Shown here piece by piece: positions 8,643 to 59,760 of a stretch of 64,000 bases of DNA (position 1 is its first letter; every line of letters starts with the position of its first letter). The stretch comes from Schmidtea polychroa. Its lineage: Eukaryota. Position numbers and translations under genes: made by a program. The notes under the pieces are model-generated. The model had not been told where the DNA came from and did no database searches. It saw nothing but the letters and a program-made list of their open reading frames with translations. Where the stretch lies: contig CM097886.1 of assembly GCA_044892525.1 (NCBI GenBank), positions 78,616,001-78,680,000 of the forward strand, read 5' to 3'.

Positions 8643-11435
8643 CATGCGCGTAGCCAGGGGGGTGCAAGGGTGCATTTGCACCCTTTCTTCCAGACGAAAT
8701 AATTGAAATGCTAGGTTTTTTTGTCCGAATAATTGCCTCATGATACATTTAATTGAGCCAAGAAGCTTCTATTTATTGAATATCGAAGATTGTCCTAATG
8801 GAATGACCCAATAAATTTTTCAAGGGACGATACAATGTAAATAAACAATATTATAGTTAGTGCTAGATAAAATTAGTTTCATATTTCGTAAAGTTGCAGT
8901 AAATAGCAACTATATTTTATGTCTTTACTTGCATTGAATTTTAACAGCCATGAAAAAACATCATCAGAGTTCGCTTTCCAAATTTTTTGCTAAGACATCA
9001 AAAGTTGATACGGAGGAAAACGATTCCGATCAAAACTTCGAGTGACCGGTGGCCGAAAAAGGGGGGTCTGAACAAAAGGAGGAACGTAGCGCCTTTCAAA
9101 GCCAAGAAGCTGATATAGAGTCATATCGGCGGTCACAATTAAATGACTCTGAAAAAATTGATGCTTTGGGCAAGCTTAAAAATCTTCCACCACACTTCAG
9201 TTTCCCGGCAGTAATGAAAGGGGCAACAAAGCGGAAATTAAGTTATCACTGGCTGTGTGAGTTTGATTGGCTGATTTACTCGGTAGCAGGAGATGGACTT
9301 TATTGCAAATTTTGCTTTTTCTTTGCGATCGGGGATCAAGTTGGATCACTGCTTGTCCGAACACCTTTCAAGAATTATCAAAAGTGCCGTGAAACTTTCA
9401 CTGCTCATGCAAAAGCGCCATACCATTTACGATCAATTGAAACAGCAAAAACTCTCTATGTAGTCAACAAAAACCCCGAAATAACCATTGAACGACTGTT
9501 GACGAGACAGAAAGAAGTTGAAAGAAAGCAAAATTTGATTCTTTTGGAAGGAATTTTTGACACCATCAATTATCTCGCTCGACAGTCATTGCCGTTTCGA
9601 GGGCATAGAGATTCTGGCGGGATATTTAACGACCAACAGGGCATCAACGACGGAAACTTCAGAAATCTGATTAGACTTCTTGCTTCGAGGGACGATTTTT
9701 TCCTGAATGCATTAGAAAGTTCGCCAAAAAATGCTACATACTTAAGTAGCACAATGCAGAACGAAATAATCGTTATAATTAATGAGATTGCTTTGACGAA
9801 GCTTCTTCAGAAAGTTATAAAGTCTGAATTTTTCTCTATTCTCGCCGGCGAGTCATCGGATGTTTCCGGAATAGAACAAATGTCGATTGGACTCCGTTTT
9901 ATCGACATTGATGCCGATAATATTGTTGAAGCATTTTTAATGCTCACGGATTTGTGTGATGTTACTGCCAAAGGACTTACTGACTCATTGTTAAGCGTGG
10001 CAAACACGATGAAGTTACGAATGGAAAAGTGTCGAGGAATTGGCTTAGACGGAGCAAGAGTGATGAGTGGAAGGAAATCAGGCGTTTCGGCAATGGTCCG
10101 GGAAAAATTTCCTCTGGTTACTTACGTACATTGTTTCAGTCATCGATTAAGCTTGGTCATTGGAGAAAGCTGCAAAGTAAAGCAGATAACCCTGTGTCTT
10201 GGCACAATTAAAAGCATCTACAACTTCTTAAACTCACCGAAAAAACAAGTTGAATTTGGCAAATCAATCGAGAAAACAACGCCAGAAACTGCTAGGAGAA
10301 AGCTAAAAAATACTTGCGAAACGCGCTGGATTTAACGACACGAAGCAGTCAACACATTCTTCGAACTTTTCGAGCCAACAATTGACGTGTTGAATGTAAT
10401 TTCGGAATGGAGTAACAACGAAGATAATGTGAAAGCTCAAGATTTTCTTAACACAGTGTCGACTTTCGACTTCATTATTACTCTTGTCACATTAAAATTC
10501 GTGTTCAAGTTCATCCTGCCGTTAAGTCGGCTTCTGCAATCACATTCAATAGATTATAGCACTGCCATAGCATCGGCCAATGATCTCATCGAGAAGCTTG
10601 AGACGGTTACTGAGAACAGCAAAGACCATTTTCAAACCTTATTCTGACGTAGCATCTTGCTTTGAAATTGAAATTTCATTGCTGAAAAATAAAGGAAGGC
10701 CAAGATTAGATGGAATAAATCAGCAGCCTGTAGAGTTTTATTATAGTTGTCTGTTCATCCCGCTGTTGAATTCGGTATGTCGAGAGCTCAAAGAAAAATT
10801 TCGAGAAAACGCAGTGCTTGCAAATTTCAAAAATATAATGTTCAACCCAGAGTGGCTGTTGAGCAGAGAAGTTCAGAACAGTCTTATGCAACTTTACCAT
10901 TTCTAAGTGGAAGATTTGAAAGGATCAGTGCAAATGTTTTTCGGAGAAGTTGAGATGTGGCAGAAAAGACTGGGAAATGCAACAGTAAAACCACGGACTT
11001 CAATGGAACATTTAAAAGCTTGCCCTCAAGAAATGTTCCCAAACGTGTTCCGATTGCTGAAAATCTATAATGTGATTCCCATAACAACCGCTGACGTCGA
11101 ACGCTCTTTCAGCAAAATGAAGCAACTTAAAACGGACGACAGAAATACAACAGGAGAGGAAAGACTCAACGGACTAATGTTTCTGAGCATTCATCGTGAC
11201 ATGGAAGTTAATTTTGATGAATTTATATGCGAGTTCCGCAAAGGAAAACGACGACTTGACGTGTGAATTCCTTTGATCAAGAATAATTGTTATTACCATG
11301 TTTAAATATACTTATCAAATTCATTCGAAATAGCTCTGGGGTTTTGAGGGCAAAACTTATTACAAATTTCTAGGACTTTTTTTAATAAAAAAAATATTTT
11401 GCATCCCCCCTCTGAAATTTCTGGCTACGCCACTG
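8643..11435 (+). mobile_element. Full-length hAT transposon (ZMYM1/THAP12 P52rIPK-like family)
   Basis: 8-bp TSD AATGGTGA (8635-8642, 11436-11443). TIRs CATGCGCGTAGCCAG / CTGGCTACGCCACTG. Confidence 0.92.
8950..11266 (+). pseudogene. hAT transposase pseudogene
   Basis: TTF-type Zn finger (LYCKFC), FRGH, YLSSTMQNE, YVHCFSHRL, ETRW, TTADVERSFSKMK. In-frame stops at 9043, 10333 and 10904, one frameshift near 10640, and ILAGE in place of the usual ILADE. Confidence 0.9.
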
Positions 11436-15329: not shown

Positions 15330-16707
15330 TGAAGTCAATGAAATAGAAGAAAATATTGCAATTGCAATAATTGTGAAACAGAAGTTAAACGAGGCAAAAG
15401 GAGATGTCCGAGGCTTTTTACAATAAATAAATACGAGTTCCATTTAAAATCAAAGCACGTGATATATTTAAAGTTGTTAAAGAGGTCTAACGAAGATATA
15501 GATCTGGGTAAATTGAAACAAACTACTTTTGTTGATATTTTTAAACATTGTAATATTTGGGAATTAGAAAATCCAAATTCAATAAAAATTTTATTGCGAT
15601 TGCAAAAATGATATCATTAGATTTGCAACCATATTCAATTGTCGAGCAAACAGGATTTAAAAATCTTCTTAAATTTCTTGAGCCAAGATATATAATTCCT
15701 AGAAAGTACTTTTCAGGTAATGTGATTCCATCGATTTTCGAAAATTTACAACTCAGTCTTTCATGTGCTTGACTGCACTTTGGGTTTCTGAGGAATTTGA
15801 AAGAAAAAGTAGTCTCACTCATGCAAGCCTTTCAATTTACAACATATTGATGATAATATCGGTATTGAATTTGAAAAATCATTGATCGAATGGAATTTAT
15901 ATACAAAATGTTCTTTTATAGTACATGATAATGCAGCAAACGTTAAAAAGGGTTTAGAACCAAAAATATCAATCAAATTCTTTGTTTTTCGCATACGTTA
16001 CAATTAGTGATAAAAGATGTTATTGATAATTTTGATAAAATTCAAAAAATTCTATTTTCCATTCGAAAAATTATTGGATATTTTAAGAGTTCATCTATTG
16101 CAAATAGTAGATTAAAGGAAATACAAAAAAAATCTTTCAATGCCTGTTTTAATGCCAATCAAGGATGTTAAGAAAAGGTGGAATTCAACCTTAAAAGGTT
16201 TTATGAAATAAAAAACGGAATTTTAGTTTATTTTTCTGAAATTTCTAGTGAAAAAGAAGAATTACTAAATCAATTAGACGTTAGTTTAATTGAAGAATTA
16301 ATAAACATATTAAGTCTATTTGAAGAGATTACAAGAGCTCTATCATATGAGAATTCAACAATTTCGGAATTTATACCTGCTATTGAAATTTTGAGAAAAT
16401 CAGCAAATAAAATTTTTTCCGAATCTATTAATAATGAAATTTCCTTTAAACTTAATTTATCATTGATAGCAAGAAGTGAAAATATAATTTCAACATTATT
16501 AGATCCAAGATTTAAAAACAAAATATTTGATCCAGCAAATTTTAATTTAGATTTAATTAAAAACGAAATGATTAAATATTTTCCTAAATTTGAAATCAAA
16601 AAACTGAATTAAAAAATGAAATTATTTTTGAAAAAAATTCAAATATTTGGAATTCATTAGATAATTTTGATTCTCCTTGTGAGATTGCTAATTTCAAAAA
16701 TTCTTAT
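15330..16707 (+). pseudogene. Ac/ZBED1-type hAT transposase remnant, 5' part
   Basis: IAKMISLDLQPYSIVEQTGFKNLLKFLEPRYIIPRKYF, a CFSHTLQLV-like motif, TLLDPRFK. Multiple frameshifts. Confidence 0.8.
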
Positions 16708-17278
16708 TGCTGGGGTAGTGCTTGGTTGACTCTGCTCAATCTACGTCCTTGTCTAGGGGATGCGTGTCCATATCAGTACGCTACATACGCCCGTGTCAAC
16801 CCGGAGCAGGACCCCGCACAACCTGCCCTCCAACATAGCACCCGCGAATTGCTTCACGTTGGAAATGTGCTATGCCGGCGAGACTCCAGTAAGCAGGTGA
16901 GCCCCTACCTTAGGACTACTCCTTACTGAGGCCTCGACTTCCCTTTCTGACGGCCGATGGAAGGACTTACGTCTGTTTACCTCATCAGATTCTCTCTCTA
17001 CCCTGACCCATTGGTCGGCACAAAATTGACCACTGCCTCTCGAACTCAAAATTTACTCTCGCTTTGCGAACACTACTCTGAACCTTTACCACAGCTAGTT
17101 AGATTTAAACAACAACAAGGTTTTAACCAAAAATTTCTTTATTTTATTATCATGATACATTAGATAATTATACACTACATAACAAGTACACTTGGTGGAG
17201 AATAGATTAAGAAGAAAAGGAGTCATGATAGTATATTTGTCCATTCGCACCCTGCACGGTTGTATTGTGTTGCGGCCC

Positions 17279-18022
17279 TCACTTCTCCCACCCCGCATCC
17301 GCCAATAGCTCATCTAGATCAAAAAACTCGGAGGCATTCTCCTCCCAAGTCACACCAGCGGCAGATATGATTCACCCTGGGATTCCTACGGTCAGATCGA
17401 TCGTTACGGGTGGATCATTCGAAACACTTGGGGGGTTGGCAGATAGTTCTCGTTGTTTGACAATTGCCCGTTCACGTTGGCGCTTCTTACGCTCCGCTCT
17501 GGACAATTGGCGACGCTTAGGTTTTGAGGGGTTAGCAGACAAGATTGCCGAGGACGTCGTGGCTGAATGCGATACCTTGCCAGTGCCGGGAGTAGGTACG
17601 TCCGATGGCCTGGGGGAGAGGTCGGCCTCCACACATTCCTGACAAGATCTTTTCGACAAGGGTGGCGAACTAAATGAAGGTTCATGGTGAACGGGGAAGA
17701 CATTGTCCGCTTCTTTAATCGGAATACTAACGATCCTTCGGGTTGTAGCGGCTTGAACGTAAACTTTATGTAGAGCTTCGGACTGCTCTTTGATTAGGCT
17801 ACGCTGAGCTCTACTTTCGCTTATCAAAGCATCGCGACAATGCTCACTGCGGTACAATTTCTTTTGAACTTCCTTCATTTGTACTGGGCTAAACCATGTA
17901 CCTTCCAGATCGTCGATTTTCTTTTTATATCGACCGATCTGGGCCTGTAATTCTCGGATTACGGTGTTTTTGTCGGCACAGGAGAAACAGGGTTTGAGCG
18001 ACGGCTTCGAGCTTGGCAACAT
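17279..18022 (-). CDS. Orphan protein (~247 codons, one internal TGA at 17372-17374)
   Basis: Long GC-richer open frame with CFSC, a coiled coil, KRRQLSRAERKKRQRER and, in frame after the TGA, WEENASEFFDLDELL. Homologous to 7476-7880. Confidence 0.75.
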
Positions 18023-20049
18023 TTTTGATAACTGTAACAAAGAAACAATGAGCATAAGAATTAAGATCAGCGAGCTCTACTAAACTAGTATGGACACAAT
18101 CATTTGTTGATTTTCGTAAAATTAAGTAAAAGGGGAAAAATTAAATGATATAGTTTCGTTAGAAATAGCGTTAATTGCATTCAGTGAATTTTTAGATGTC
18201 TATTTAGGGTGTAAGAGAAATTAACATATGGATAATACTCTGCCAAAAATTTATGGTTATACTTAAAATATTCATTACCTACCGTTATCTGAGATTTTCA
18301 AATATTTACGTGAAAAATGACTCGCGAATGTATTGACATAATGGACATTAGATTTACAGTTTACCACAGAAATGGTTTAGGAAGAATCAGGAATATTTGC
18401 ATGATTGAATAATTAATGCTCATTTTTGCACATAGCTTTTCGACTACAGATATTTATTTTTGAAAAACGTAAAACAAAATTCTCCAGTGCCGCGTGAACG
18501 ATCCTTAAATTAATGGCCCCAAATTGTAACTCATATTTGAATATTAAATTCAGAAAACCCGTTTAATCAACGTGCTACTATTAGATTTTTAATAAGTCGC
18601 GTATGATCAGATTTCTATCCCCATCCTAAAAATCAATTTAGTTATTTTTCATTATAGAGTCTACTGGTGCAATCAACCTATAAAATTCAGTCGATTATTA
18701 ACAGTCATCCGGCGACGCATGAATCACTCGTAGAAATCATTAGCCACATGAATCGGAAAGATACATATCTATTGGAGATAATTATGTCATGAGCGTGTGC
18801 TTCAATTTTTGTTCTCACCGTCAATAGCGGGCTGGGAAAAGGATGCATGCGGCATATGTCAGTGTGTATTTATATGTGGCAATGCGTGTGATTTGCCTTG
18901 TCTGTTTTCTTACTATCTATGTCAACGGGTTGCAGCTGATCGTCTCACACTGCGAGTTGGAATTATTTTAGTTATTCAATATGTTCTCTATGAGTAATTC
19001 TCACCGCGCATGAACGTTGGAATTTTATTCTCGCGATGTGCCGTTCCCTCCGTTTTTCAACTTGGGTGTTGTGATTTCGGGAAATATTCCCAGCAGTTCC
19101 TTCAACAGAAATCTCTCTTATTTTGGTCGAAAGAGTCATTTATAGAAAGAACCTCGCGTTGCCGCTATCGTGGATTTTCAGAAGCAATGGAAAAATTACA
19201 GCGTTTGTTGACAATTATATTTATACTACAAATCTTTTGTTGAATAAATCTTTATTTATGCTCTCTATATTCTGATTTCGCATTTGATGAACCTATTTGT
19301 ACGCAGTTAATTTTGATAGAAAAATATTTTTCTGCTAAAAGATAGAATGTCAGTTGATGTCAATATACGATTTCTGATGTCGGATGAAATTTCAGAGTGT
19401 GATGTTTACTAAGAGTTTGTAGCCACCTCAGTCATTTTCAATTCAAATTTGCTCTACTTTTCAATATTGGAATATATTCCTCTGTACTTTAAACCCGTGC
19501 TTGCAGCATTTTATTTCCCTCAGCGACGGACCCGTGAGGAAGCCCCCACATTCCGGCCCACGTCAGCTGCGTGATTGAAGAGATCCACACCCGCCGGCTG
19601 AGCTCCCGAAGGCTCCTCATACCATGGCGTGGGTCTCCTCAACTCCACGTTTCTCAAAAAATAATTTTAGCATAATCAATACGTTCGATGACAAAACATA
19701 GTATAAAGATTTATATATCATTAACCTTTAAATTAATTTATGAACTATAAAATCATTAAAAAATTGACATCGAATGGAGAAGTTTTTATTCAAAGGTTAG
19801 GTTAATATAATAGAAATATTTAATCCTTCAAAAATAAATTTCATAACAGCAATACATCCTTACTTTATTATTTGAAAAATTCTGTAGTTCCAAAGGCTGA
19901 GCCGAAATATAAACTGATCGAATCGGTTATATGAATGAGTAGTCTATAGAACTGTCCCTAATAGTCGTCTGAGTATGGTTTGGTTTTCCTGATTGTCGAG
20001 TACCTATAATTGGTTTGGTTTTAACATTTTTATAGTTAATACTATTCTT

Positions 20050-20135
20050 ACCTATAATTGGTTTGGCTTTAACATTGACTATAGTGAATTTGCTGTTTAC
20101 TTATATAGGTATTTTTTGTTTATGCGGACCAATCA
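20050..20135 (-). promoter_or_regulatory. Putative CCAAT box, TATA box and splice donor in the element terminus
   Basis: The minus strand reads ctgattggtcc...cctatataag...ccaattatag|gtaaga (donor at 20051). Confidence 0.45.
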
Positions 20136-20460
20136 GAATTGAGTACCGCCTTATTTTATTCATTTAATTTATTTTCCTTGTTTTTGGGTTATTTCTTCTT
20201 ATTTTCTTTATTAAAATTATGTTTTTATTTATTTCCCTTAATTTCCTTATTATCTACTGCCTTTTACGTTATTTTTCGTCATTCTATTGTCCTATTTAAT
20301 TGTTCTTATTTTTATGTTTTTGTTTTAATTCTTATTTTCTAATTATTGCTTTTCTTATATTCTATTCTATTTTATTCCTCAATCTATTTATTTTATTTTT
20401 TTATTTTTCTTTAGTTAAGTTTAACCTGATTTCCCAGCTATCTTTCGGCTCAGCCCAACA

Positions 20461-20737
20461 TTATTTAGCTTTTGAATCCGAGATAAATAATTATTTATTT
20501 GAAAACTTATCTTCAAAGGATGAAGATATAATTAATTACTGGAAAACTAATTCTATCAGGTTTTCTTTACTTTCTAGCATAGCAAAACAGTTTCTATCGT
20601 GCGCTTCGACTAGCGTTCAATCTGAGCGTGTTTTCAATTGTGATAGAGATGTAATAACTGATCATAGAGCTAAAATTCTTCCTGAAAATGTTGAAAAAAT
20701 TGTTTTTATAAAAGTAAACAATAAATTTTTAAGTTAA
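20461..20737 (+). pseudogene. hAT transposase C-terminal dimerisation domain (3' part of 15330-16707)
   Basis: IINYWK...LSSIAKQFLSCASTSVQSERVFN...RAKILPENVEKIVF. Confidence 0.88.
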
Positions 20738-26808: not shown

Positions 26809-29373
26809 CAGGGATGGCAATTACATGGCACGCAGACAAAAAACTTCTGGCACTCTAAGAAATTTAAAAAAAGAAGTAGAAAAAATTCTTATTATAAAAT
26901 AATTACTGCTTTTTAAAAAAAAATTTGGACCCAAAATTTTAATCAACGGCTTTGAATTGAATTCTATATTTTTTTCTCTAGTTGGCTTTGCGTTATTAAA
27001 TAACGCAATTAATTATTAAATTTAGTTTATTTTGGCACTTTGATAAAAACCTATTTGCCAAAATAACGGTTATTTTGTACATACGTATATGGTTGTGTTA
27101 TAATTCTTGTATATTCTTACATCAGTTTTTAGTTTTGTTTTAACTTGTGCAGTTCAATAAAATTTGTGTTTAATTTTAAATAAAATTTATTTTTTGCTGA
27201 ATTAAAATGGTACCAAAAAACCAAAACTACAAGATATTCGTAGCTTTGTACTCTCTTGGACTGCTGATTACGGTTTTGTTAAACATGGAGATAAAAGTCG
27301 GTGCGGTCTGTGCTCTGAAATTATTGTATGTCGAACGTCTTCTATTAAGCGACATTTTGAAACCAACCATAAAGAAATTGCCGAAAAAAATATTGAAGAA
27401 AGAAAAGAACTAATTTCTCAACGATTAAAGATAGCTGAAAATCAATCGAATTCATTATCAAAATTTGTAAAAACCAACAGCAATGTTACAGAAGCTAGTT
27501 TTGAAATTTCTTATTTGATTGCTAAGCAATCAAAACCATTTTCTGATGGAGAGTTTGTAAAAACGGTTATGTTAAAAGCGGCCGAAAGTTTGTTTCAAGA
27601 TTTTAATAATAAAGAAAAGATTATTCAAAGAATTCGAGAAGTCCAGCTAAGCCGAAATTCAGTTAAAGATAGAATTTTAAAAATAAGTGCGAATATTTCT
27701 GATCAACTTTACAACGATGTTAATAGCTGTGACTACATTTCAATTTGCCTCGATGAATCAACAGATATTAAGTCATCTGCCCGATTAGCAATCATTGCAC
27801 GTTATCCGAAAGATAATGAAATGCACGAAGAACTTTTAAAATTAGCAAATATCCCAGAAAGAACAAGAGGTAGTGATATTTGTGAAGTTGTATTCAATGA
27901 ATTAAACAAACTTAAAATAAATATTAAAAAAATCATTTCTGTAATGACAGATGGAGCTCCTAATATGACTGGACCAGAGATAGGTTTTGTTAATTTATTT
28001 CAAAACCTAGTTGGTCATCCAATAATAGGCTTTCATTGCATTATTCATCAGCAAGTTCTTTGTGCAAAATTCGGAACTAGCGATTTCAAAGAAATATCAG
28101 AACAAGTTAATAAAATCATAAATTTTGTAGTTGCACGCGACATGCATAAAAGACAATTTAAAAAACTTTTAAATGATATGGATTGCGAATACGATACTCT
28201 CTTAATGTGCAATAGTGTACGTTGGCTAAGTCGAGCGACATCCTTAGAACGATTTGTGAATTGCTTGGAAGAAATTCGACTTTTTTTACACGAATTCGAC
28301 AGGGATCGTTTTAAAGAATTATATGATACAGAATGGTTAACAAAATTAATGTTTTTTACCGACGTAACATTACATTTAAACGTTCTTAATAAAAAATTGC
28401 AAGGACGAGGAAAAACAATTGAAGTTATGTTTGGATTGATAAAGGGGTTTGAAATTAAATTAGATATTTTTGTTAGAGATATCGCATCTGGAAAACATAA
28501 TAATTTTCCGAAACTTAAAAGTTTTTTAAATGAATCTACAATTTTCAAAAAAACTAATTGGAATTTTAATTACGAATTTTCTAAAGTTCTTGAAACTATA
28601 AAAGAACAATTTTCAAATCGATTTAAAGATTTTAAAAGAATTGATAGGCTGTTGAAAATTGTAAATTATCCGGACTTATTCGATATACAGGATTTCGATA
28701 ACAACCTTATTAATTGGATGAAATTAGAAAATTTAGAAATGCAGACAGTAGATTTGCAATCTAATCCTATTTGGACACAAAAATTTGTGAATATGCGAAA
28801 AAATATAGAAGAATTGGAATATCATCGATTGTCACAGGATGGAGAGTCGGAATGCCGCATTGAAAACTTGATATTGGAAGTGTGGAATAGTATGCCAGAA
28901 GCATTTGCTTCTGTAAAAAAATTAGCAATCGCAATGTTAACCATTTTCGCATCCACTTATTACTGTGAGAGTCTTTTTTCTGTACTTAATCATGTACTAT
29001 CAAAGACAAGAAACAGATTAACAGAAGAAGACTCAGCAGCTTGTATTACCTTACAATCGACAACATACCATCCTGATATTAAAAACCTTGCAAGTAATAT
29101 GAAGCAAAAAACTTCTAACAAAATTTAAGAATTTTTTATTAAATTTATTATTAAACTTTATAATTTTTTTTACTATTTCTTTATATTGAATAAATATTAT
29201 CACATGAACTCAAATATTGAAATTTATTTCTGTTTTCTTGTGAATAAAAAAATGAATAAAAAATGTATATATAGGTACATATAACAAATAAAAGTTACGA
29301 GGGCACGCGAAAAAAATTGAATTTAAATTTAGTTTATTTTGGCACTTTGATAAAAACCTATTTGCCATCCCTG
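26809..29373 (+). mobile_element. Full-length hAT transposon (Charlie/SPIN/GTF2IRD2-like)
   Basis: TIR CAGGGATGGCAA / TTGCCATCCCTG, 8-bp TSD CTATAGTA. Confidence 0.95.
27207..29128 (+). CDS. hAT transposase, ~640 aa if one 1-bp frameshift near 27216 is corrected
   Basis: BED finger (RCGLC...KRHFETNH) is in frame with the 537-aa ORF. Motifs SICLDESTD, TDGAPNM, HCIIHQ, RWLS and STYYCESLFS are intact. Confidence 0.9.
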
Positions 29374-34233: not shown

Positions 34234-35542
34234 CAAGGGTGGGCACGCATGGGTTCAATAAGAGCCATTTTCCGAAAATTTATTTTTTACAGAGCCACCA
34301 TAGTAAAGTACATATTTTTTTTTATTTCATTAATTTGAATAAAGAGACTAAAACGCTATTAAAAAAAAACAAAATAATTATTTCAAACATTAAGTAACAA
34401 ACATAAAAATCCATTAATAAAAAGTAATAAAATTTCTTGAATTAACGAAGACTTTTGGTCAAATCTTTGAAATTTGGTGTATACTTTGTTAAAGCTGTTC
34501 GCAGCAATTCTGTAAGATGCTGATTGGTCAACTGTGAACGATATTTCGACTTTACGAACTTCATTGTGGAGTACAAAGATTCACAACAATATGTTGTACC
34601 AAAAATTGAAATTAGACGGCAAGCACCTTGTTTTAAGTGTGGATATTTTGCCTCTGGTACGAGTTTCCTATATTCAACTATAGAAGTAGATTTATGGTGC
34701 ATTTGCAAAGCCTGGTCCTCTTTCATATCTAATAACTCCAATTCCCCAACCGCTTTTTTAACAAGTATTACTTCAGAAATTGGAAATCCATCTTCAATAA
34801 TATCACAAATAAATGGGTTCACAAAAAATGCAAATGTAGATTTATAACTTTTCAAATCTTCAAACCTACATTTGAAATCCGCTTGCAATTCTTCTAATTT
34901 TTCACTGTATTCGTTTACTTTTTCTTCTGTAATATCAATTATATTAGCTTTTATTCGTGGAAAATGATTAAATATTTTCGACCTAAGATCGTTCACAAAA
35001 AGCCGAAGTTTAGCTTCAAAACTAAATAACGTTTGTGACAAATCAATAATTATCTTTTCTTTTCCTTGTAAAGCCAAATTTAATGTTTGCAAATGTTCCA
35101 TAATGTCTGTAAGGAACATTAAGTCAGAAAGCCAAGTTTCATTTTCTAATTCTGGGTATGCTATTCCGTTTTCTTTGGTAAATATTATGATAGGATTTAG
35201 GAAAACACGAATAGAAAACTATACTAAAATATACAAACGACCGCAATCTTGTACAAACAAAATAATAACCAATCAAAATTCACTAAATTTATTTTTGATG
35301 CTTCTCTCTCGTTGTTATAACAAAGCGCCGCCTACTACAAAATAATTTTAAAAAGCAGTAAAATGTGAAAAACAATGTTTCGTTAATTTTTGACATTTAT
35401 GAAAATACAATTGCAACAAAAAATTTTTTCTCAAAACATTTAGTGAAAAATTTCAAAATAAAAAATCGAATTCGATTATCAAGAATTCAATTATCAATGA
35501 GCCGCAGTTTACTCAACGAAGAGCCGCATTTGCCCACCGTTG
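34234..35542 (-). mobile_element. Internally deleted hAT element (1309 bp) with transposase C-terminus at 34442-35119
   Basis: TIRs CAAGGGTGGGCA / TGCCCACCGTTG, TSD TTATATAA. Peptides FLTDIMEHLQTLNLALQG and FGTTYCCESLYS. Confidence 0.92.
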
Positions 35543-47038: not shown

Positions 47039-49894
47039 CTATTGAATAAAGAATTAAAAGCCTATCTATGTACATAAAATTTGTGTGGGTAATAAACACT
47101 AAATTACAAAGAAATTTAGTTTTTGATGAGTTGGGACTATAACCATTGGATAGCGCATGCAAAACTATATAATGGGAAGTTGGTATTTTAAAAGTTATAT
47201 TTTTCATTAACTTTACATTTTTTAAAAGTTTTTTAAAATACTTAATTTTAAAAGTTATATTTTGTATGAAAATAAATTTTCATATTTATAATGAATTTTA
47301 GGTCATTTTTTAATCGTTTCTAAAAATGCTTTCTTTCACCAATGATTTGAGGAAGAATTTCTTTATGTGACTGATAGTCTGTCCCTTTCAATATTTTTTA
47401 ATCTTTTCCAATTTTTTAAGAATCTTTAAAATGAAATTTTATTAAATAAATTATAATTTATATTGTTCCATTTACCTCACCTACTTATAGAAAGTTGGAA
47501 TGTAATAAAGCACTTCAAATATCCTTAAATCGCATATTTTTATAACAAAATTTTCCTGTAATAAGCATTGGTTACCCATAATTTATTTTCCTTAGCATAT
47601 ATTTTTATTATGGGGTTTCAACATAATTTTAGCACAAGTTTTGACAAGTGCAATTAGACTATATTTAATTTCTAATATTTTCAATATTTATTTATTTGAT
47701 TTTACAAATTTTTTACATGTATTTTAAATTTATCTAGGCATTATTCAAATTAATGACAAATTAAATTTTTTGTTGATTAATCTATATTTTGGCATATTGC
47801 CAATTTTAAAAATAAGTCTTAATTTAGAATTAATATGTTTTCCAAGTTCCACTTATTTATAATTAAAAAAAAATCATTTAAAAAAATTACAATGTTAAAT
47901 CTTTCATTAAATTACAATTTTTTTTCTAAATTTTAGACGAATCTAATAATTGAAAAATACACAATTAAAAATAATTTTAACATTTTTTCATTAAATTGTT
48001 TTCAATTTTAGTGAAACATATGACTGAAAGTTGATCATTCACATTTTTATAATAAATTATAAATAAATTAATGTTATATTACTATTTTTAAATTGCATTA
48101 AAAATGTTTTTAATTTCACACGAATTATTCCCATTTACTTATTTTAAGTTATAACTACAACTTTAAAATTTAAAAACTAATCTACTGTCAAATTGTCAAT
48201 ACTGTTAAAGTCATCTAATTATAAACTTTTATTGTCTGACGATAATTTAAAAAATCGTCATTTTAATCGTCAACAGAAGATTATTCAATGAATAAGACCA
48301 TTGCTTAAGACCATTACTTAACAAAAGTCAACTAATTTTCACTATTTTATCCTTTTACCTCCTTGAAAAGGTTGTTTTGTATGTTGTGTACTTTATGTTT
48401 TTCATTGTCAGTGATCGAAGTTCATAAAAGGATAAAATAAAAGTGATTATTCAACTTTTCGACGCTCATGTTGTATAGTACTCGTACACAGTACACTAAA
48501 TTTAAAAATGCAAAAAATTTAAAGGTGAAGCAAGTAAATCTTAAAAACCTGAATTAAAAATAAAACTAATTAAAAATTGTTTAAAATCAGAAATCAATAT
48601 TTTTCAGGGGAGGTATGATGAGTTAGAAAATAGAAAGTTAGGATTAAATTGATAATTGACTGTCAACCAAACATGATATGAACAGAAGCAAAAACAAAAT
48701 AGGAATACGTCAAAACAAAATCAAATAAAATATGTCGGATCGACGAAACAGTTTAAAGAAGTCAGAATCCAAAAAGACACTAGAGACACTATAGAGAAGT
48801 TAGAAAGTGTCGGAAAGTCATTGTGTACTCAAATTATCAACCATTTGAAGCGTTATTAAGAATTACCCTTTGGTAAATTTCATTACTCAATTGTTTTTAT
48901 AAAAAATTGTACTGATGTAAAAAGCCATCGATTTAGTGAAATTGTGATATAAAGAAAATAAACTTTACTATTTGTTGAGTTCTGCGTGCTTTAATCAAAT
49001 GATCGAAGGGAGTCAGTAAATCAAATCTTACCGGAACAATGATATCAAACCTAATACTCACATATAATTGTCCACTGTGGTGTAGTAGACGCCTAAGTGC
49101 CTCACAATACTTTTTATAATGTTGCTTAAACAAGCTAATCATTGTTATTAGCACACCAAAAGGGTGCAATGCCACATAAATAGGAGAAACCTTCCACCAT
49201 CACTTGTATATCACTTAGAAACATAATTAAGCTTATATTTCCCCTAAATTTCTTCATTCTTCAAGAAACAAATATTTAATAATCGAAGAATAACTAATTC
49301 AACTCTTGCTACATTTCAAAGTACAACCCAATGCAATTTTGTATGCTTCTTCAAGTTCAAAATTTAAAAACTTTAATGATATTTCATTATCTTTATCAAA
49401 GAATATTGATTATCGGGAAACATACTCTCAAGATTTTGAAATGACAATTATTCTACTATATATGAAATTAATAGTAAGAAGTAGAGTATTTAGATAAAAA
49501 TTCAATTATGATATATTATATATTTTAAGACCATTTTCAACAATCATCTTATATAATAGAAATAGGTAGATATTTCACACTGCAGCACGACCATCTGGTG
49601 TAAAATTCTTTGACTTATGAGAAATAAGGGTAATTTTTATAAATAAGTAAATTGAAGTATTAATTCAAAATAATTAATGGATTTTAAATTTATGGTAAGA
49701 TATTTTCAAGAATCGAGGTCTTATAAGAAATTAAGGTAAAAAGAAAGAAATTAATTTAAAAAATAAGTAAGTAGGTAGTTAGTAGCGTACTGCAGCAATG
49801 ACCCCCCCCGGGGGGGTTCTGCTGCAACTTTTTTTTTGCTGCAACTTTTTTTTTGCTGCAACTTTTTTTTTTGCTGCAACTTTTGATTACGCAA

Positions 49895-51470
49895 TTTTTC
49901 AGACTATAGTGAGGGGGTCTCGATGGTCCTGGGATTTTCAATACAAAAAAATTTTTTCTATACAAAAACGATGGTCCTGGGATTTTCAATACAAAAAAAA
50001 TTTTTCAATACAAAAATCCGACTACCACTAAAAAAGCCAAGGAATTTTCAGACTATAGTGAGGGGGTCTCGATGGTCCTGGGATTTTCAATACAAAAAAA
50101 TTTTTTCTATACAAAAACGATGGTCCTGGGATTTTCAATACAAAAAAAATTTTTCAATACAAAAATCCGACTACCACTAAAAAAGCCAAGGAATTTTCAG
50201 ACTATAGTGAGGGGGTCTCGATGGTTCTGGGATTTTCAATACAAAAAAATTTTTTCTATACAAAAACGATGGTCCTGGGATTTTCAATACAAAAAAAATT
50301 TTTCAATACAAAAATCCGACTACCACTAAAAAAGCCAAGGAATTTTCAGACTATAGTGAGGGGGTCTCGATGGTTCTGGGATTTTCAATACAAAAAAATT
50401 TTTTCTATACAAAAACGATGGTCCTGGGATTTTCAATACAAAAAAATTTTTTCTATACAAAAACGATGGTCCTGGGATTTTCAATACAAAAAAAATTTTT
50501 CAATACAAAAATCCGACTATCAATAAAAAAGCATGGTAATTTAAGGTCTCAGGATATTTTCAATACAAAAAGGCGGTCTTCAATAAAGAAGCATGGTAAT
50601 TTAAGGTCTCAGGATATTTTCAATACAAAAATCCGACTATCAATAAAAAAGCATGGTAATTTAAGGTCTTAGGATATTTTCAATACAAAAGCTGGTCTTC
50701 AATAAAAAAGCATGGTAATTTAAGGTCTCAGGATATTTTCAATACAAAAATCCGACTATCAATAAAAAAGCATGGATTTTTCGAATTAAATTAAGGTGGG
50801 TCTCCTTGGTCCTGAGAATTTCAATAGACAAAGGTGGTCTACACTAAAAAACGTGGTAAATTTTTTAAAATTACAGTAAATTATGGGTCTAAAAATTGAA
50901 TTACAGTAAATTATGGACTAAGATTTTTAAATTACAGTAAATTATGGTCCAAATTTTTCAATTAAAGTAAATTATGGTTCAAATTTTTCAAATAAGGTAA
51001 TTATGGTCCTAAAAAATTAAATTACAGTAAATTATGGTTCTAAAAAATTATATTACAGTAAATTATGGTCTAAAAAAATTAAATTACAGTAAATTATGGT
51101 CCAAATTTTAAAATTACAGTAAATTATGGTCCAAATTTTTGAATTAAAGTAAATTATAGGCTTAGATTTTTCAATTAAAGTAAATTATGGTCCAAATTTT
51201 TGAATTAAAGTAAATTATAGGCTTAGATTTTTCAATTAAAGTAATGAATGGGCTCAAATAACTAAATTAAGGTTCAAAATTTTAAATTAAAGTAAATAAT
51301 GGTCCTAAAAAATTAAATTAAAGGTAATTATGGTCCTAAAAAATTAAATTAAGGTCCAAATTTTTGAATTAAAGTAATTAATGGGCTCAGATTTTTCAAT
51401 TAAAGTAAATAATGGCTCAAATTTTTCAAATTAAAGTAAATAATGGTCCAAATTTTAAAATTAAGTAATC
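49895..51470. repeat. Tandem arrays in the left TIR: 149-bp (~4 copies, with 40-bp subunits), 60-bp (~4 copies), ~30-bp (many copies)
   Basis: The 149-bp period is visible in ORF starts 49923/50072/50221/50370. The 60-bp unit runs from 50521, and the attacagtaaattatgg unit from ~50870. Confidence 0.92.
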
Positions 51471-51809
51471 AAAGTAAAAAATTAAAATTAAGTAATCAAT
51501 GGTAAAAAAAAATTTTAAATAAGTAAATTAAAGTAAATTAAAGTAAGATTTTAAAATTTATTAACAAAAAGTTGAAATAATAGAAGGTGTTTGAGAATTG
51601 AAATTTTTTAATGAAAATTTTAATGAAATATTTTTCAATGGTAATTTTTAATGGAAATTTTTATGGAATAATTTTTTAAGTTAATTTTTAATGGAAATTT
51701 TTAAGAAATATTTTTCAATGATAATTTTAGATGGAAATTTTTAAGATAATTTTTAATGAAAATTTTTATGAAATATTTTTCAAAGACAAATTTTAATAAT
51801 AATTCAACA

Positions 51810-52320
51810 ACAAACCAACAACTTAGTACCAACAACCAGTAACTTACGAACATGTATTTGCAACCAGTTACCTACAACTAGATACTAACAACCAGTTACC
51901 TGTTACCAAGTACATACAACAAAACATCCAACCAACTAGGTACCAGATACCGAGTACTCACAACCAACATCAACCAGGTACTAAGCATTAATTACCAACT
52001 ACTAAGTACCTACAATCAACTAGGTACTAGATACCAAGTACCTACAACCGACAACAACCAGGTACTAAGCACTGTCAACTAGATACCAAACACTTACAAC
52101 CTACAACTAGTTACTAACAACTAGTTACCTGATACCAACTACTCAACAACCACCTACCAAGTACATACAACTAGTTACTAACAACCTGTTACCTACAACT
52201 AGATACTAACAACTAGATACCAACAACCAGTTACCAACTACTAAGCATCATCAACCAACTACTAAGCACCTACAACCACATACCCATTAACTAGATACCA
52301 AGTACTTACAACCAGGTGAC
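51810..52320. repeat. Degenerate caactag(a/t)tac(t/c)aac minisatellite
   Basis: Repeated C/A-rich motif, recurring at 52740-52810 and 53220-53400. Confidence 0.8.
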
Positions 52321-54024
52321 CACATGAAATTATTGGTTAAATAGGTAAATTAATGTTTAATTTTTAAATTAACTAATCAATGATCTAAAATATTAAAGTT
52401 AAAGTCAATTTAGGATGAAAGTTTTCTGGGATATTCAATGTTAATTTTAGATGCAAATCTTCGTCAATTAATCAATGACCACATGAAATTATTGGTTAAA
52501 TATGAAAATAAGGATTATATTTAGTTGTTAAGTAAATTATGGTGTAAAATTAAGAAATAAAGAATAATTAGGTAAATTAAGGATAAGTAAAGTTAAAAAT
52601 TTTAAATAAGTAAATTAAGGTTCAAAATTTTAAATTAAAGAAAACAATGGTTTTAATTTTAAATTAAAGCTAAATGAGTAAATTAAAGTAATAATTTTTA
52701 AATAAGTAAATTAAGGTTCAAAATCTAAAATTAAGTAACCAATACTTACAACATGATACCACGTACTAACTAACTCTCAAACAACCAGATACTTACAACT
52801 AACTACTAAATATTCTTCACTGTATTTTATGAATTGTTTTTTAAATTAATTTTTTATCTATCTTCAAAAATATGTTTAATTACAATCAGTAGAAAAACCT
52901 TTTCAAATTTAACAAAAATGTTGATTTTCATCAAAAAACCACAACTCAACCACTTTAAAACACCACTTGAAATTCAAAATAATTTAAATTACAATGAAAG
53001 ACTAATGAATTCTAATTCACAAAACATTCTTCTTTTAATTGATAACTTATTATTGCAAAGTAAAAATCATATTCAATAAATACTTATTATTGATCAGTTT
53101 TATTATATATACTCTGAGTTTACCCGACAGGATGTTTTGACCCCCTAAGGGTACTGGTCGTAAGGGTACTGGTCGTAAGGGTATTGGTAACACTCAACCC
53201 CCACCTACTCATTAATTAGTTACCATGTACTAACAACTAGGTTTCAAACAACTAAATACTAAACACTAACAACCAGATACCTACAACTAGTTACTAACAA
53301 CCACCATCAAAACCCATCGAGAAATTAACAACACTGTACCAACTACCAAATACAAGATACCAACAACTTAGTACCAACAATCAACTAACAACACATAAAA
53401 ATAATAGCAATTAAATACAAAATACTCTTCATCACATACACTATCTTCTTATCAAAATCTAAAAAGCCAACCAACTACTTAGAACCAACAACTATGTACT
53501 GACAAATTGATCTTTAAAAGAAAATACTCTTCACTTGAAAAATTAGATGGAAAATTAATTGAACTCAAGGCATCAATAACTTGATAAAAATTGATTAAAT
53601 TATTGTAAAAAATTTAAATTATTCGAAATAAATATCATAAAAATTTAATTAATGGACAAGAAAAAATTCTAATCATCCAATAAATAAAAAAAAATGCTGA
53701 TCATTCAAGTTGAATCAACTAAGATAATAAATTAATAAGATAAAATCTAGTAGATAATTGATTTAGATTGAATAAATTAATTGAAATAAAATTAATTTTA
53801 AGTATTTTTTTTAAAAGTAATACATGTACTCAAATTGATTGACTGATTTCTCAATATATTCAAAAATCAATATAAATTCATTAAAATTATCAAAGTCAGC
53901 AATCTACAATAAAAATAATTATCATTAAATTCCAAAAGAGACTAGATAACTAATGATAACATCTAACAAACCAGTAAATTCATTTAAATGACAATAATTG
54001 GTATATCCAAGTGAATTCTCCAAT

Positions 54025-54520
54025 AAAATCATCTAAAAAGCATCAAATTTCCCTGAAATATCTATATCTTTTAAGATTAGTATCTTATCGATAAGTACTT
54101 GTTAAAGATCATATATTCACCTCAAACTAACAAGATTCCTTAAAATCCCCTTAAATGACTATATTTCTATCCTTAATTCATATTATTACAAATATCATCT
54201 AAAAAGCATCAAATTTCATTGAAATAACACTATCTTTAAAGATTGATATTTTAATGATAAATACCTTAAAAGATCATATATTCACCTCAAACTAACAAGA
54301 TTCCTTAAAATCTCTTAAATGACTATATTTCTACCCTTAATCCATATTATTACAAATATTTCACTAAAATCATCTAAAAAGCATCAAATTTCCCTGAAAT
54401 AACTATCTTTAAAGATAAGTATTTTATCGATAAATATCCTTAAAAGGTTATATATTTACTTCAGACTAATAAGATTGCTTAAAATCCCCTTTAAATGACT
54501 TTAATTCCTATTATCACGAA
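54025..54520. repeat. ~170-bp tandem repeat, 3 copies
   Basis: atcatctaaaaagcatcaaatttc...aacaagattccttaaaatc recurs three times. Confidence 0.85.
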
Positions 54521-55069
54521 TATTATAAAACATGTAAAATAATTTGGTCATTAACCCTAAATAATTTATAAAATCTAATGATAAAACCGGTTATAATTAA
54601 CTTTTTGTTAATCACTGTACTCGAAATTTAAAATAAATATAACTGACTAGGTCCCATTAAAAGATTAAATTTATCCATTCAATAAAATATATTTCTTCAA
54701 ATGATCATTTTACCGATATTCAACCGATTTAATTACTAATTAAAATCAATCGATAGATTTCTTTCAATAAAGATCAATTTTATTTAGTTGTTGTTGATGT
54801 TTTAAGTCCATATTTCTCAACTTTTGTCATTCTCCGTCTAAATAAAGATAAAAATAAATTAAAGTTGATATCAATCCCAATTATCTGTAAAGTTTTCATT
54901 GTCAAAACCAAGTAAATCGATCATTATCCCTACTTAATAATCCATAAATCTAAATTAATATACAATGAATTAATCACAACCTAATAAAACGATATAATTA
55001 TTATTGATACATAACTGACTAATTGACATTTCCCTTAAAACAATGATATTTTACCAACATCACCATTAA

Positions 55070-55440
55070 AAAAATCATATATTCCCATCTTAACCCATGT
55101 CTCATTAAATTTAACCGACTATATTCCCATCTTAACCCATCCTTCATTAAATTCAATCGACTATATCTCCCTTACAATGATATATTCCTACCTTATCCGA
55201 TCTCTCATTAAATTCAATCGACTATATCTCCCTTACAATGATATATTCCCATCTTATCCGATCCCTCATTAAAGTCAATCGACTATATCTCCCTTACAAT
55301 GATATATATTCCCATCTTAACCTATCCCTCATTTAATCTAACCGACTATATCTCCCTTAAAAGATCATATATTCCCATCTTAACCGATCTCTCATTAAAT
55401 CTCACCGACAATATCCCATCTTAACCGATCTCTCAGCAAA
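55070..55440. repeat. ~45-55-bp tandem repeat
   Basis: tatattcccatcttaacc...ctcattaaatt..a.cgacta repeated about 7 times. Confidence 0.85.
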
Positions 55441-55974
55441 TATTTCTACCCTTTTAAACATCTATCCGATTATATCCCTTACTTTCCCTAAAGATTCCGC
55501 CCACTTTAGCCCTTTAATATATATCAATCCTCTAAAAATCCTTAGAGAACTTCAAAAATATGACTTTTCATTAACTGTTATAGACACCAGACATTCTTCC
55601 ATAGAAATAATTTAGAAGCTAAATAATAAGAGCCCACTAAAAGATCAAAATTCACTAAAATTTCTACAAATATTTACCATCAAATACCTAACTGGAGATG
55701 ATATATATTGATTGACCATAATTTTTCATCGATTCAGCCAATCATTTTCAAGCACTATCAGCAAACTAAATTTCTGTATATCCAACAATAATTATCAAGT
55801 AAATTTAAAGTCCCTGATAAAGTTATGTTTTTTAAAGATCATCAATGTGTAAATATTCTTAGAAAATTATTGAAAACATTATTAAGTCAAATATATTACA
55901 AAGTTATCATCAAAAATCACTTAATTATTAGCCTAATTGTCAATAAATTTTTATTTTAAAACAATTCAATAAAA

Positions 55975-58900: not shown

Positions 58901-59594
58901 TGCTTACCACATTAGAATTTTTATCGAAATTTATGATAATTTTACTGATTCAATGAAGAATGAGTTAATTAATATATACTCTGAGTTTATCCGACAAAAT
59001 ATTCTGTCCCCCCCTATGGGTATTGCTCACAAGGGTACTACTCACATTCAACATGTCGTAAGTGTATTAGTCGTAAAGGTATTTAATGCTTTTATTTGAA
59101 TGATTATTTAGGCAAATTTGTATAAGGCATTCATTGATAATTTTTAGAGTTGATGGTTTTATTCAAGTAAATTTCTATCATTTTTATGAATTTCTATTAT
59201 TCTTGTGAATTTCCATAATTTTTTGTGAATATCAGTAATTTTTGTGGATATCTATCATTTTAATGAATTTTTATCATTTTTGTAAATTTCTATTATTTTT
59301 GTGGATTTCTAACATTTTTGCAAATTTGATGTTTATTGAATGAATATTTAATAATTTAATGCTAATTCTAAGATAAATTTAATTAATTTCTTGATAATTG
59401 GATGTATTTTTATTGACTTGTTTTTTTTAATTTTAAATAAAAATTATTTTCAATGAGGTTAATAATTAGAGATTTTACAATAATGAAGTGATATGATAAA
59501 TTTTTATGAGGATATTGAATAATTTTCTAAGAATTTCATGTTGACTGATAAATTTAATTGATAAATTTAATTAATTTCTTGATAATTAGTTGTA
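55975..59594. repeat. Large inverted repeat: arms 55975-57307 and 58380-59594, ~1.07-kb spacer
   Basis: For example, 57241-57307 is the reverse complement of 58380-58446. The spacer itself consists of diverged ~330-bp tandem units. Confidence 0.92.
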
Positions 59595-59760
59595 ATTACT
59601 TAAATTAATTTAGATACAAATAAAAAAAAATATATATATATAATATTAGTTTTACCATAAAAATTATGCATTTATGTCCTTACTTGTACATCACGCCTGT
59701 TTTCTGTAACTGTGTATTTCATCAATTTATACTATTTTGTGTGAGATTTACATAATTAAA
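59595..59760. repeat. Direct copy of flanking DNA 60798-60962
   Basis: attacttaaattaatttagatac...tacataattaaa is near-identical at both positions. Confidence 0.93.

Follow-up and report, generated by a model that had tools for sequence, protein, structure and literature searches.

A solo LTR of a giant Burro-type gypsy element in Schmidtea polychroa carries a conserved and probably spliced gene

Solo LTRs are normally regarded as noncoding leftovers, and the ORFs known to overlap retroviral LTRs include MMTV sag, HIV nef, and foamy virus bel2. In the Rev, Rex, Rem, and Rec systems with their response elements, as well as in Tat and foamy virus Tas, a small, oligomerizing protein with a basic helix is made from a spliced message; the structured RNA of the Rev-type systems is held by the unspliced RNA only, and Tas has an acidic tail. 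Among gypsy-type elements, the Burro or GYPSM1 elements are giants found in planarians (Grohme 2018; Jurka 2007, as summarized in PMC6431247). They are described there with a total length of more than 30 kb, an internal region of up to 25 kb, a polyprotein of near 4,900 amino acids, a Gag with 3 CCHC knuckles, an env in frame between gag and the protease, ankyrin repeats, and BCL2-like, BIR, and dUTPase-like domains; MATH/TRAF is placed inside the polyprotein in Burro1, and a separate MATH/TRAF ORF is reported for a Dugesia element (PMC6431247). The gypsy-type element Cer1 of C. elegans contains a spliced accessory gene for CERV, a nuclear, cysteine-bearing, and multimerizing protein that is reported to be needed for the export of unspliced genomic RNA; CERV consists of 517 amino acids with globular M and G domains, and its 5 exons include exons common to gag (PMC10309623).

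The window, by which we refer to the whole stretch of 64,000 nucleotides of S. polychroa DNA that was analyzed, contained one insertion of 3753 bp with TG...CA ends, which formed an inverted repeat at 6 of 7 positions, and with TTAT on either flank. The insertion is located in a dead hAT transposon, as follows.

15342..16707, plus strand: remnant of the host hAT transposase to the left of the insertion, with stops and frame changes already present (left limit approximate)
16704..16707, no strand: left copy of the target site duplication (TSD), TTAT
16708..20460, minus strand: solo LTR of 3753 bp, from a Burro-type gypsy parent of 29.5 kb; the sense of the element is the minus strand
20461..20464, no strand: right copy of the TSD, TTAT
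20465..20737, plus strand: host hAT transposase to the right of the insertion, with the C-terminal dimerization domain (Pfam PF05699, E 2e-17)

The hAT reading frame runs on unbroken when one TTAT is discounted, and an empty site with a single TTAT was identified in all 7 paralogous hAT copies examined (out of 25 matches), which demonstrates that the insertion is real and made a 4-bp duplication, in agreement with the preliminary description. The chance of a random 4-bp match at the local base composition is about 0.8%. As also stated in that description, neither gag nor RT nor integrase was observed within the insertion upon inspection of ORFs and Pfam domains, and a single long ORF was present.

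At least 18 full-length copies in the genome, with 93% to 100% identity, contained both ends together, and the TTAT flanks are therefore not a coincidence between 2 unrelated ends. These 18 copies included 11 solos flanked by TSDs, 3 copies followed by a primer site, and 4 copies preceded by the 3' end of an internal region. Paired LTRs on the same strand, 25.7 kb apart, showed 4 differences over 3761 bp and had one TSD in common. The preliminary description had suggested a giant solo LTR carrying a gene as one of 2 readings, and this reading is right, since same-strand direct pairs with one 4-bp TSD per pair flanked gag-env-pol (L008/L009, L072/73, L074/75, and L076/77).

The internal region contained gag, 3 CCHC knuckles, a viral fusion protein, PR, RT, RH, and IN, in the order PR-RT-RH-IN, and ankyrin, with env in frame between gag and PR (PF24664, E 7e-67). 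The primer-binding site behind the 5' LTR was complementary to the 3' end of a genomic tRNA-Pro(TGG), and no polypurine tract was evident before the 3' LTR, where a conserved mixed motif of 13 to 16 nt occupied the spot. The parent element spans 29,506 bp in total and 21,984 bp internally, and its polyprotein comprises 4,731 open codons (111+3333+1287, in 3 stretches of one copy). As cargo, it carries RING and RING-TRAF/MATH genes, with MATH/TRAF in a separate ORF downstream of the polyprotein. The longer ORFs that were scanned contained a weak ubiquitin match (E 0.055) and no Pfam matches to BIR, BCL2, or dUTPase. We conclude that the segment at 16708-20460 is an LTR that belongs to a giant, Burro-type gypsy element with an env.

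The features inside the LTR, all on the minus strand, are listed below.

20100..20134, minus strand: promoter core with a reversed CCAAT box and a TATA box, from the subfamily alignment; the same pair is present in distant families
near 20085, minus strand: initiator-like site, putative start
20046..20051, minus strand: first splice-donor consensus, about 55 nt past the TATA box; missing in some subfamilies
18032..19863, minus strand: putative GT...AG intron of 1.8 kb, which varies more than any other part of the LTR
19521..19649, minus strand: intronic RNA element made up of 2 stem-loops, with compensatory changes in the first; candidate for a response or packaging element
17279..18022, minus strand: LTR gene, 247 codons in the family, with a CxxC motif, a long coiled coil, a basic helix, and an acidic tail
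17372-17374, minus strand: stop codon that breaks the LTR gene at codon 217
17138..17143, minus strand: poly(A) signal AATAAA with a T/GT-rich stretch after it, seen in 10 of the 12 copies aligned, unclear in distant families
16965..16970, minus strand: conserved donor-like GTAAG downstream of the poly(A) signal
16830..16936, minus strand: second conserved RNA element, 2 hairpins near the LTR end (putative U5)

The ORF is 247 to 249 amino acids long within the family, and the frame of 247 amino acids was kept in 11 of the 18 full-length copies; 6 of 11 solos examined retained the full frame. The gene was first described as intact-looking, but the copy in the window is interrupted by the stop codon, which removes the tail, and for this reason it probably makes no working protein. 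Homologous ORFs were identified in the LTRs of families that were only 30% to 46% alike, and the dN/dS values ranged from 0.07 to 0.11 among the comparisons listed (n = 13, dS 0.8 to 1.7), all of which share a single reference and hence are not independent. The ORF is thus under purifying selection across many families. Nor is it an orphan, as had been proposed: each of 2 protein searches of its own genome yielded at least 150 scored matches, 133 of the 150 matches listed in one of them were free of stops within the match, and 7 distant homologs were found in the databases. The latter were short pieces or fusions to unrelated host genes, gene-model errors that are explained by the LTR gene. 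The protein belongs to no Pfam family, and nothing was found in a word-indexed sequence search with one copy and the 19-sequence alignment as queries. Likewise, no significant match came from searches against Pfam, PDB sequences, or Foldseek (viral, PDB), and a search of the ESM Atlas returned only unnamed matches of at most 0.85.

If the LTR is a transcription unit, transcription from the CCAAT/TATA promoter would begin about 375 nt from the LTR start, a short noncoding exon would be joined across the 1.8-kb intron to an acceptor 9 nt ahead of the ATG, and AATAAA would end the message. The spacing between the acceptor and the ATG varied from 8 to 11 nt, which argues that the upstream exon is noncoding. 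One genomic copy (L084/L106) lacked the intron to the base, with the donor joined exactly to the acceptor; it was the 1 true match among 2 pattern matches for intronless copies. The ends of the intron are alike over 3 nt, so a DNA deletion combined with one substitution could mimic the loss of an intron. Together, the conservation of the motifs and the intronless copy suggest that the LTR gene is probably spliced. Contigs from 3 runs, presumed to be RNA, touched the conserved blocks and the ORF and contained no splice joint; these are neutral on expression. We consider it very probable that the solo state resulted from LTR-LTR recombination and that the LTR is a spliced transcription unit of its own, and we are just as confident in the identity as a solo LTR and the spliced LTR gene taken jointly, with the role of the protein outside this estimate.

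The sole conserved promoter is close to the start of the LTR and precedes the ORF by about 2.1 kb. The gene may therefore be part of R, which would be very long at about 3 kb, rather than of U3, and the analogy to U3 ORFs such as MMTV sag in the preliminary description may thus not apply. To our knowledge, such an R would be far longer than in any other LTR element. A doubtful alternative is a layout like that of MMTV, in which a long U3 contains the gene and a promoter for it, while the genomic RNA starts from a second promoter just before the poly(A) site and R is short. This layout needs neither a 3-kb R nor early polyadenylation within the 5' LTR; it also accommodates the intronless copy equally well, but no conserved TATA or CCAAT box was present between the stop codon and AATAAA, and across distant families only those promoter motifs located 350 to 510 bp from the LTR start were retained.

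As judged from sequence comparisons, 2 conserved RNA structures are present inside the LTR. In the intronic stem-loop, 11 of 50 pairs were changed on both sides, a count that was matched in none of 500 shuffles, with 0 to 4 in slid controls. Distant families contained an intronic stem-loop of their own (11 of 25 pairs), located by a GC scan and folding, mostly at an equal distance from the ATG. A covariance model of the element recovered the close families well and the distant ones weakly or not at all, and at least 4 loci in a further group were without the stem-loop by GC scan and folding. The support for the element at the LTR end consists of its conservation and 3 covarying pairs out of 45, and folding of the whole LTR-end region was no better than for shuffles (z -1.0). 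Rfam gave 0 matches to the LTR RNA elements at E up to 5, and a hammerhead reading of a motif near the LTR end was dropped for this reason.

The LTR protein is predicted to dimerize through a coiled coil and to have a basic helix and an acidic tail. The predicted homodimer scored 0.58, compared to 0.01 for the best control, with a contact agreement between runs of at least 64% and a pLDDT of at least 73. Among solved pairs, 21 of 30 attained the mark, compared to 0 of 23 single chains and just 7 of 16 animal pairs, and the pass could stem from generic coiled coils. The basic helix contained 13 K/R within 29 residues, and the acidic tail followed a PhixxPhiPhi pattern, defined after viewing the alignment, in 15 of 19 aligned members. 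No leucine-rich export signal was matched in 13 of the 19 tails, and the other 6 matched at differing places; the absence of a common signal counts against a classical Rev. One distant homolog had a subthreshold match to Pfam REV over the basic stretch (E 0.0013, 19.1 bits, cutoff 22), and comparisons of sequence and fold yielded nothing above threshold for Rev, Tat, Tas, or any solved protein. A SUMO-interaction reading of an IDLT motif was dropped because the motif was not kept in distant genomic families.

We favor, with some confidence when the 2 modes of action below are taken together, the interpretation that the protein works in the nucleus as a dimer that trans-activates the expression of its own element. 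A parallel coiled coil, perhaps zinc-clasped, would dimerize the protein, the basic helix would bind nucleic acid or serve as a nuclear signal, and the acidic hydrophobic tail would recruit host machinery. Our first choice of target, put forward tentatively, is the intronic stem-loop. Since it is present in the unspliced RNA only, a protein from the spliced message could license the export or processing of the full-length RNA, following the logic of Rev and Rex. Action at the promoter, as for Tas or Tat, is an option of about the same low likelihood. It is somewhat less likely that the protein acts on the host, and not on the RNA or promoter of the element, as an anti-silencing or cell-survival factor, like the RING/TRAF cargo, and that the stem-loop is a packaging or dimerization signal read by Gag. 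The element bears RING and RING-TRAF/MATH genes, and the stem-loop is located just past the splice donor, which is the usual place of retroviral packaging signals. Moreover, an IAP of Burro1 is said, second-hand, to protect stem cells (PMC13465017), and PIWI control of Burro1 is described in PMC8532177. However, the gene is located in the LTR, directly behind the promoter, and not among the cargo genes, the basic helix and the acidic tail correspond to the layout of a regulator, and no homology to host genes was found in Pfam and database searches.

It is improbable that the solos are single-LTR units that were mobilized directly as nonautonomous gene carriers, even if solos account for 11 of the 18 full-length copies. 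L084, the copy with no intron, carries a 4-bp duplication of its own and a short, reiterated pre-LTR piece, and the 33 kb upstream contain no internal region; it therefore looks like an integrated one-LTR cDNA. Yet it is the only such copy found, and ordinary solos start cleanly at TG with no extra sequence. Moreover, a transcript of the LTR only would be without the promoter part and the primer site and so cannot rebuild itself, and recombination yields the same TSD pattern. The second reading in the preliminary description, a nonautonomous Ginger-like DNA transposon, which would fit the TG...CA ends, the 4-bp TSD, and the short inverted ends, is refuted by the occurrence of the unit as direct pairs that enclose gag-env-pol and have a tRNA primer site following the 5' copy, rather than as TIR-bounded singles only.

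Each solo LTR carries a selected gene together with its putative promoter, intron, and poly(A) signal, and such copies number at least in the hundreds, so that the solos may supply the protein in trans and drive or tune the family. A more speculative proposal is that the Burro-type elements are invertebrate "complex retroviruses" with a regulatory circuit wholly inside the LTR, consisting of a 3-kb R, an intronic response element, and the gene for a cognate Rev- or Tat-like dimer, such that solos act in trans and spliced one-LTR cDNAs integrate. If so, each solo LTR would be a free-standing regulatory gene able to switch on full-length elements in trans, and one-LTR cDNAs from the spliced RNA could integrate themselves. 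The pairing of a protein with a covarying RNA element would then represent retrovirus-like control of unspliced RNA, in a second invertebrate case after CERV and apparently unrelated to it. The Burro family is reported second-hand to matter for planarian stem cells (PMC13465017).

The parent element resembles the Burro elements, as summarized in PMC6431247, in its size of about 30 kb, its single giant polyprotein, the 3 CCHC knuckles, the in-frame env, and the PR, RT, RH, IN, and ankyrin domains with RING and TRAF/MATH cargo, and the earlier remark that it was not recognized as a described family thus went too far. At 29.5 kb it is slightly below the stated size of more than 30 kb, its MATH/TRAF is located in a separate downstream ORF and not inside the polyprotein as in Burro1, BIR, BCL2, and dUTPase were not found by Pfam in its scanned ORFs, and the text on Burro in PMC6431247 mentions no gene inside the LTR. 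We therefore refer to it as Burro-type, by described architecture rather than sequence identity, and do not file it as Burro1. No description of a gene inside a Burro LTR was found in a literature search, which does not make the gene unpublished. Compared with CERV, as described in PMC10309623, the similarities are the gypsy-type element, the spliced accessory gene (putatively spliced here), and the nuclear, cysteine-bearing, multimerizing protein (predicted here), whereas the LTR protein has 247 amino acids, one coding exon located within the LTR, and mostly coiled coil and disorder. It is similar to Rev, Tat, and Tas in its small size, putatively spliced message, basic helix, predicted oligomerization, intronic RNA structure, and Tas-like acidic tail, but differs from these in that it has no common export signal, in that Pfam, Rfam, and fold comparisons gave nothing above threshold, and in that both the gene and the RNA element are located inside the LTR. 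Finally, as for MMTV sag, HIV nef, and foamy virus bel2, the coding sequence is located inside the LTR and is therefore present at both ends of the element and in solo LTRs; here, however, the promoter, the intron, the entire ORF, and the poly(A) signal are all found in a single LTR, and the element involved is a gypsy from an invertebrate.

The 3753-bp unit at window positions 16708-20460 starts with TG, finishes with CA and has TTAT on either flank. Both flanks consist of a broken hAT transposase, with the C-terminal dimerisation domain to the right of the insertion (PF05699, E 2e-17), and the hAT frame is continuous over the site after removal of one TTAT. A genome search with the right flank gave 25 matches, and the 7 hAT paralogues that were read all contained the empty site with a single TTAT. 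The segment is a genuine insertion, and the preliminary description of a single event with an exact target site duplication and a restored host frame was confirmed. Five other copies of the family (L002, L010, L055, L083, and L088) were inserted within (TTA)n or (TA)n microsatellites, and a target preference is possible. One of these, L088, is located just outside the window (G000:C2:78.684-78.688 Mb) in a TA microsatellite, is 87% like the LTR in the window and contains a full-length ORF. The window also contained 3 transposase-like ORFs, at 27206-29128 (plus strand), 34442-35218 (minus strand) and 9046-10335 (plus strand), 2 with a hAT dimerisation domain and one with DUF4371, as well as a large nested inverted repeat of tandem subrepeats at 49760-60320, a foldback-like element with inner arms of 695 bp that are 99% complementary.

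When the whole unit was searched against the species' own 781-Mb genome, 18 full-length copies at 93% to 100% identity and many partial ones were identified among the best 40 of 3665 candidates. Several of the full-length copies formed same-strand pairs with a spacing of about 26 kb. One such pair measured 29,506 bp overall, with 21,984 bp between repeats that showed 4 differences in 3761 positions, and was flanked by one common 4-bp duplication. The sequence between these two repeats encoded a RING ORF and a giant polyprotein that comprises Gag, three CCHC knuckles, a viral fusion protein, protease, RT, RNase H, integrase, and ankyrin repeats, followed by an ORF for RING-TRAF/MATH and three more ORFs without names. 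The 5' repeat was followed by a primer site complementary to the genome's own tRNA-Pro(TGG). Eleven of the 18 full-length copies were solos with their own duplication, although for 2 of these, located in TTA microsatellites, the duplication match is weak evidence; 3 were 5' LTRs and 4 were 3' LTRs. The nearest copy to the window LTR, among those compared, differed by 51 substitutions. Therefore, the unit is a solo LTR on the minus strand, derived from a giant gypsy element that was active recently, as in the first of the two options put forward in the preliminary description.

Several further observations concern the parent element. At G000:C1:72.65-72.70 Mb and at C2:107.32-107.37 Mb, three matches to the LTR gene occurred on one strand at 26.4-kb intervals and probably represent tandem elements with a common middle LTR. 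The tRNA-Pro(TGG) genes formed a long tandem array with a 475-bp period at G000:C1:130.90-130.95 Mb and beyond, and the tRNA-Pro 3'-end pattern had 2190 genome matches. The primer-site core was resembled at 10 of 11 letters by the LTR start (20446-20460, minus strand) and at 13 of 14 letters by a segment of the intronic stem-loop (19590-19603, minus strand), which could reflect extra tRNA contacts or end-to-end pairing. No polypurine tract was evident before the 3' LTR in L008, L072, L075, and L076; a conserved mixed motif of 13 to 16 nt was located there in all subfamilies seen, and plus-strand priming may be unusual. The last internal ORF before the 3' LTR (L036:8029-8685) had a hydrophobic start, a second hydrophobic stretch and no Pfam family, and is possibly a small membrane protein.

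The features of the window LTR are as follows:
17279-18022, minus strand: LTR gene, corresponding to a family ORF of 247 codons
18032-19863, minus strand: inferred intron
19521-19649, minus strand: intronic RNA element
20100-20134, minus strand: putative promoter core
16830-16936, minus strand: second RNA element, near the LTR end

The LTR gene, at first considered intact-looking, was found to be broken in the window copy by a stop at codon 217, but the family ORF (247 to 249 codons) was whole in 11 of the 18 close copies, and 133 of the 150 genomic matches scored had no stop inside the match. The dN/dS values between subfamilies ranged from 0.07 to 0.11 at dS values of 0.8 to 1.7 in the 13 such comparisons listed, all against one reference and with dS at saturation for the two most distant. 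Searching 1.84 billion proteins with a profile recovered 7 remote homologues (E from 4e-8 to 5e-5), all unnamed UniParc records. One was a fragment and six had unrelated host domains attached, as if gene prediction had run into an LTR. A genome search with the fragment identified more families at 30% to 46% identity, in which the gene again lay within the LTR, similarly distant from its end, at loci where LTR ends or a primer site could be reached. No recognisable host source of the gene was found.

A reversed CCAAT box and a TATA box at 327-361 nt of the LTR were kept across subfamilies near synonymous saturation, and a similar pair was located 350-510 nt from the LTR start in 6 of the 8 distant or semi-distant loci scanned. 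Downstream of the TATA box were an initiator-like site and two matches to the donor consensus. A pyrimidine tract and an AG preceded the ATG by 8-11 nt, and since this distance varies, the first exon would be non-coding. The stop codon was followed by AATAAA and a T/GT-rich tail in 10 of 12 aligned copies; this signal was not clear in the distant families. From this conservation, we infer that the LTR is a transcription unit with promoter, donor, intron, acceptor, ORF, and poly(A) signal. In a second subfamily, L034:3065-6931 was 91% to 100% identical to the window LTR in most bins upstream of position 1050 and downstream of 2378, and could not be aligned between these; the distal intron has been exchanged.

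In one copy (L084/L106; G000:C3, ~38.415-38.417 Mb, minus strand), the second donor was fused exactly to the acceptor and the intron was absent. This copy is free-standing with its own 4-bp duplication, and its left end contained reiterated LTR-start and short pre-LTR pieces. It looks like an integrated one-LTR cDNA of a spliced RNA; alternatively, a deletion in the DNA across a 3-nt similarity, combined with one substitution, could have removed the intron. A genome pattern search identified no other copies with the exact joint. If the CCAAT/TATA promoter is the sole promoter, R would be ~3 kb, and the 5' LTR would have to silence the poly(A) signal that it contains. A donor-like site that is conserved ~170 nt downstream of this signal may do so, by analogy with U1 binding in foamy viruses as excerpted from PMC3694450. 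Alternatively, the gene may lie in U3 and R may be short. An AG was also located directly before the ATG of the internal RING, TRAF, and coiled-coil ORFs, which would fit the splicing pattern of complex retroviruses.

A 130-nt block in the intron was ~85% identical where the neighbouring sequence no longer aligns, and folded into two stem-loops. Both sides had changed in 11 of 50 pairs (13 sequences), a level reached by none of 500 shuffles and compared with 0 to 4 in slid controls. Related sequences can beat shuffles, yet whole stems were swapped between subfamilies. Eight loci of distant families contained a different intronic stem-loop (1,540-1,730 nt upstream of the ATG in 6 of the 8). In this stem-loop, both sides had changed in 11 of 25 pairs, and a G-rich internal loop was similar to that of the window element; a further group showed no intronic stem-loop. 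The second conserved element, near the LTR end, is a hairpin pair. Rfam gave no matches for the LTR RNA elements.

For the LTR protein, AlphaFold2 (19 sequences) predicted confident helices at residues 13-39 and 46-98 and a helix at 175-195, with the rest disordered (mean pLDDT 64.7). Two copies of residues 8-135 were modelled as a parallel coiled coil with cysteines 12, 15, and 62 in the interface (contact agreement at least 64%, pLDDT at least 73). The dimer score of 0.58, against 0.01 for the best control, passes a threshold that 21 of 30 solved pairs, 7 of 16 animal pairs and none of 23 single chains attained, and the model supports a putative dimer. Residues 167-195 include 13 K/R, the last 22 residues include 8 D/E, and a PhixxPhiPhi motif was present in the tail of 15 of the 19 members. 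No significant fold or sequence match was obtained, and a Pfam REV match over the basic stretch of one distant homologue was below threshold.

Most likely, the spliced LTR message would encode a protein that forms a dimer in the nucleus and promotes full-element expression. It is conceivable, albeit tentatively, that the protein acts in a Rev-like manner through the intronic element: as for Rev and its response element, the structured RNA lies within the intron that the LTR gene's own message would lose, and CERV of Cer1 provides a precedent in a gypsy element, as excerpted from PMC10309623. A Tas/Tat-like activator, which we consider about as likely, is favoured by the acidic tail and by the missing export signal, as no leucine-rich signal common to the 19 members was found. 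A host-directed role is considered slightly less likely.

The part that may be new is an LTR that is coding, is probably spliced and contains covarying RNA elements, and that has been maintained in families 30% to 46% alike. Such a coding LTR was not found in the literature searched; the primary Burro papers, or their figures or supplements, may already show the LTR gene. The family had not been recognised as a described one in the preliminary description, but the element class is already known from the planarian Burro elements, which exceed 30 kb and have a 4,873-aa polyprotein with three knuckles, env in frame between gag and pol, and ankyrin, MATH/TRAF, BIR and BCL2-like motifs (PMC6431247). 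By comparison with this published description, we file the parent element as Burro-type, not Burro1. No Pfam match to BIR, BCL2, or dUTPase was found in its ORFs. The parent element resembles Burro in size class, polyprotein, knuckles, env position, and ankyrin repeats, whereas its MATH/TRAF domain is encoded by a separate ORF.
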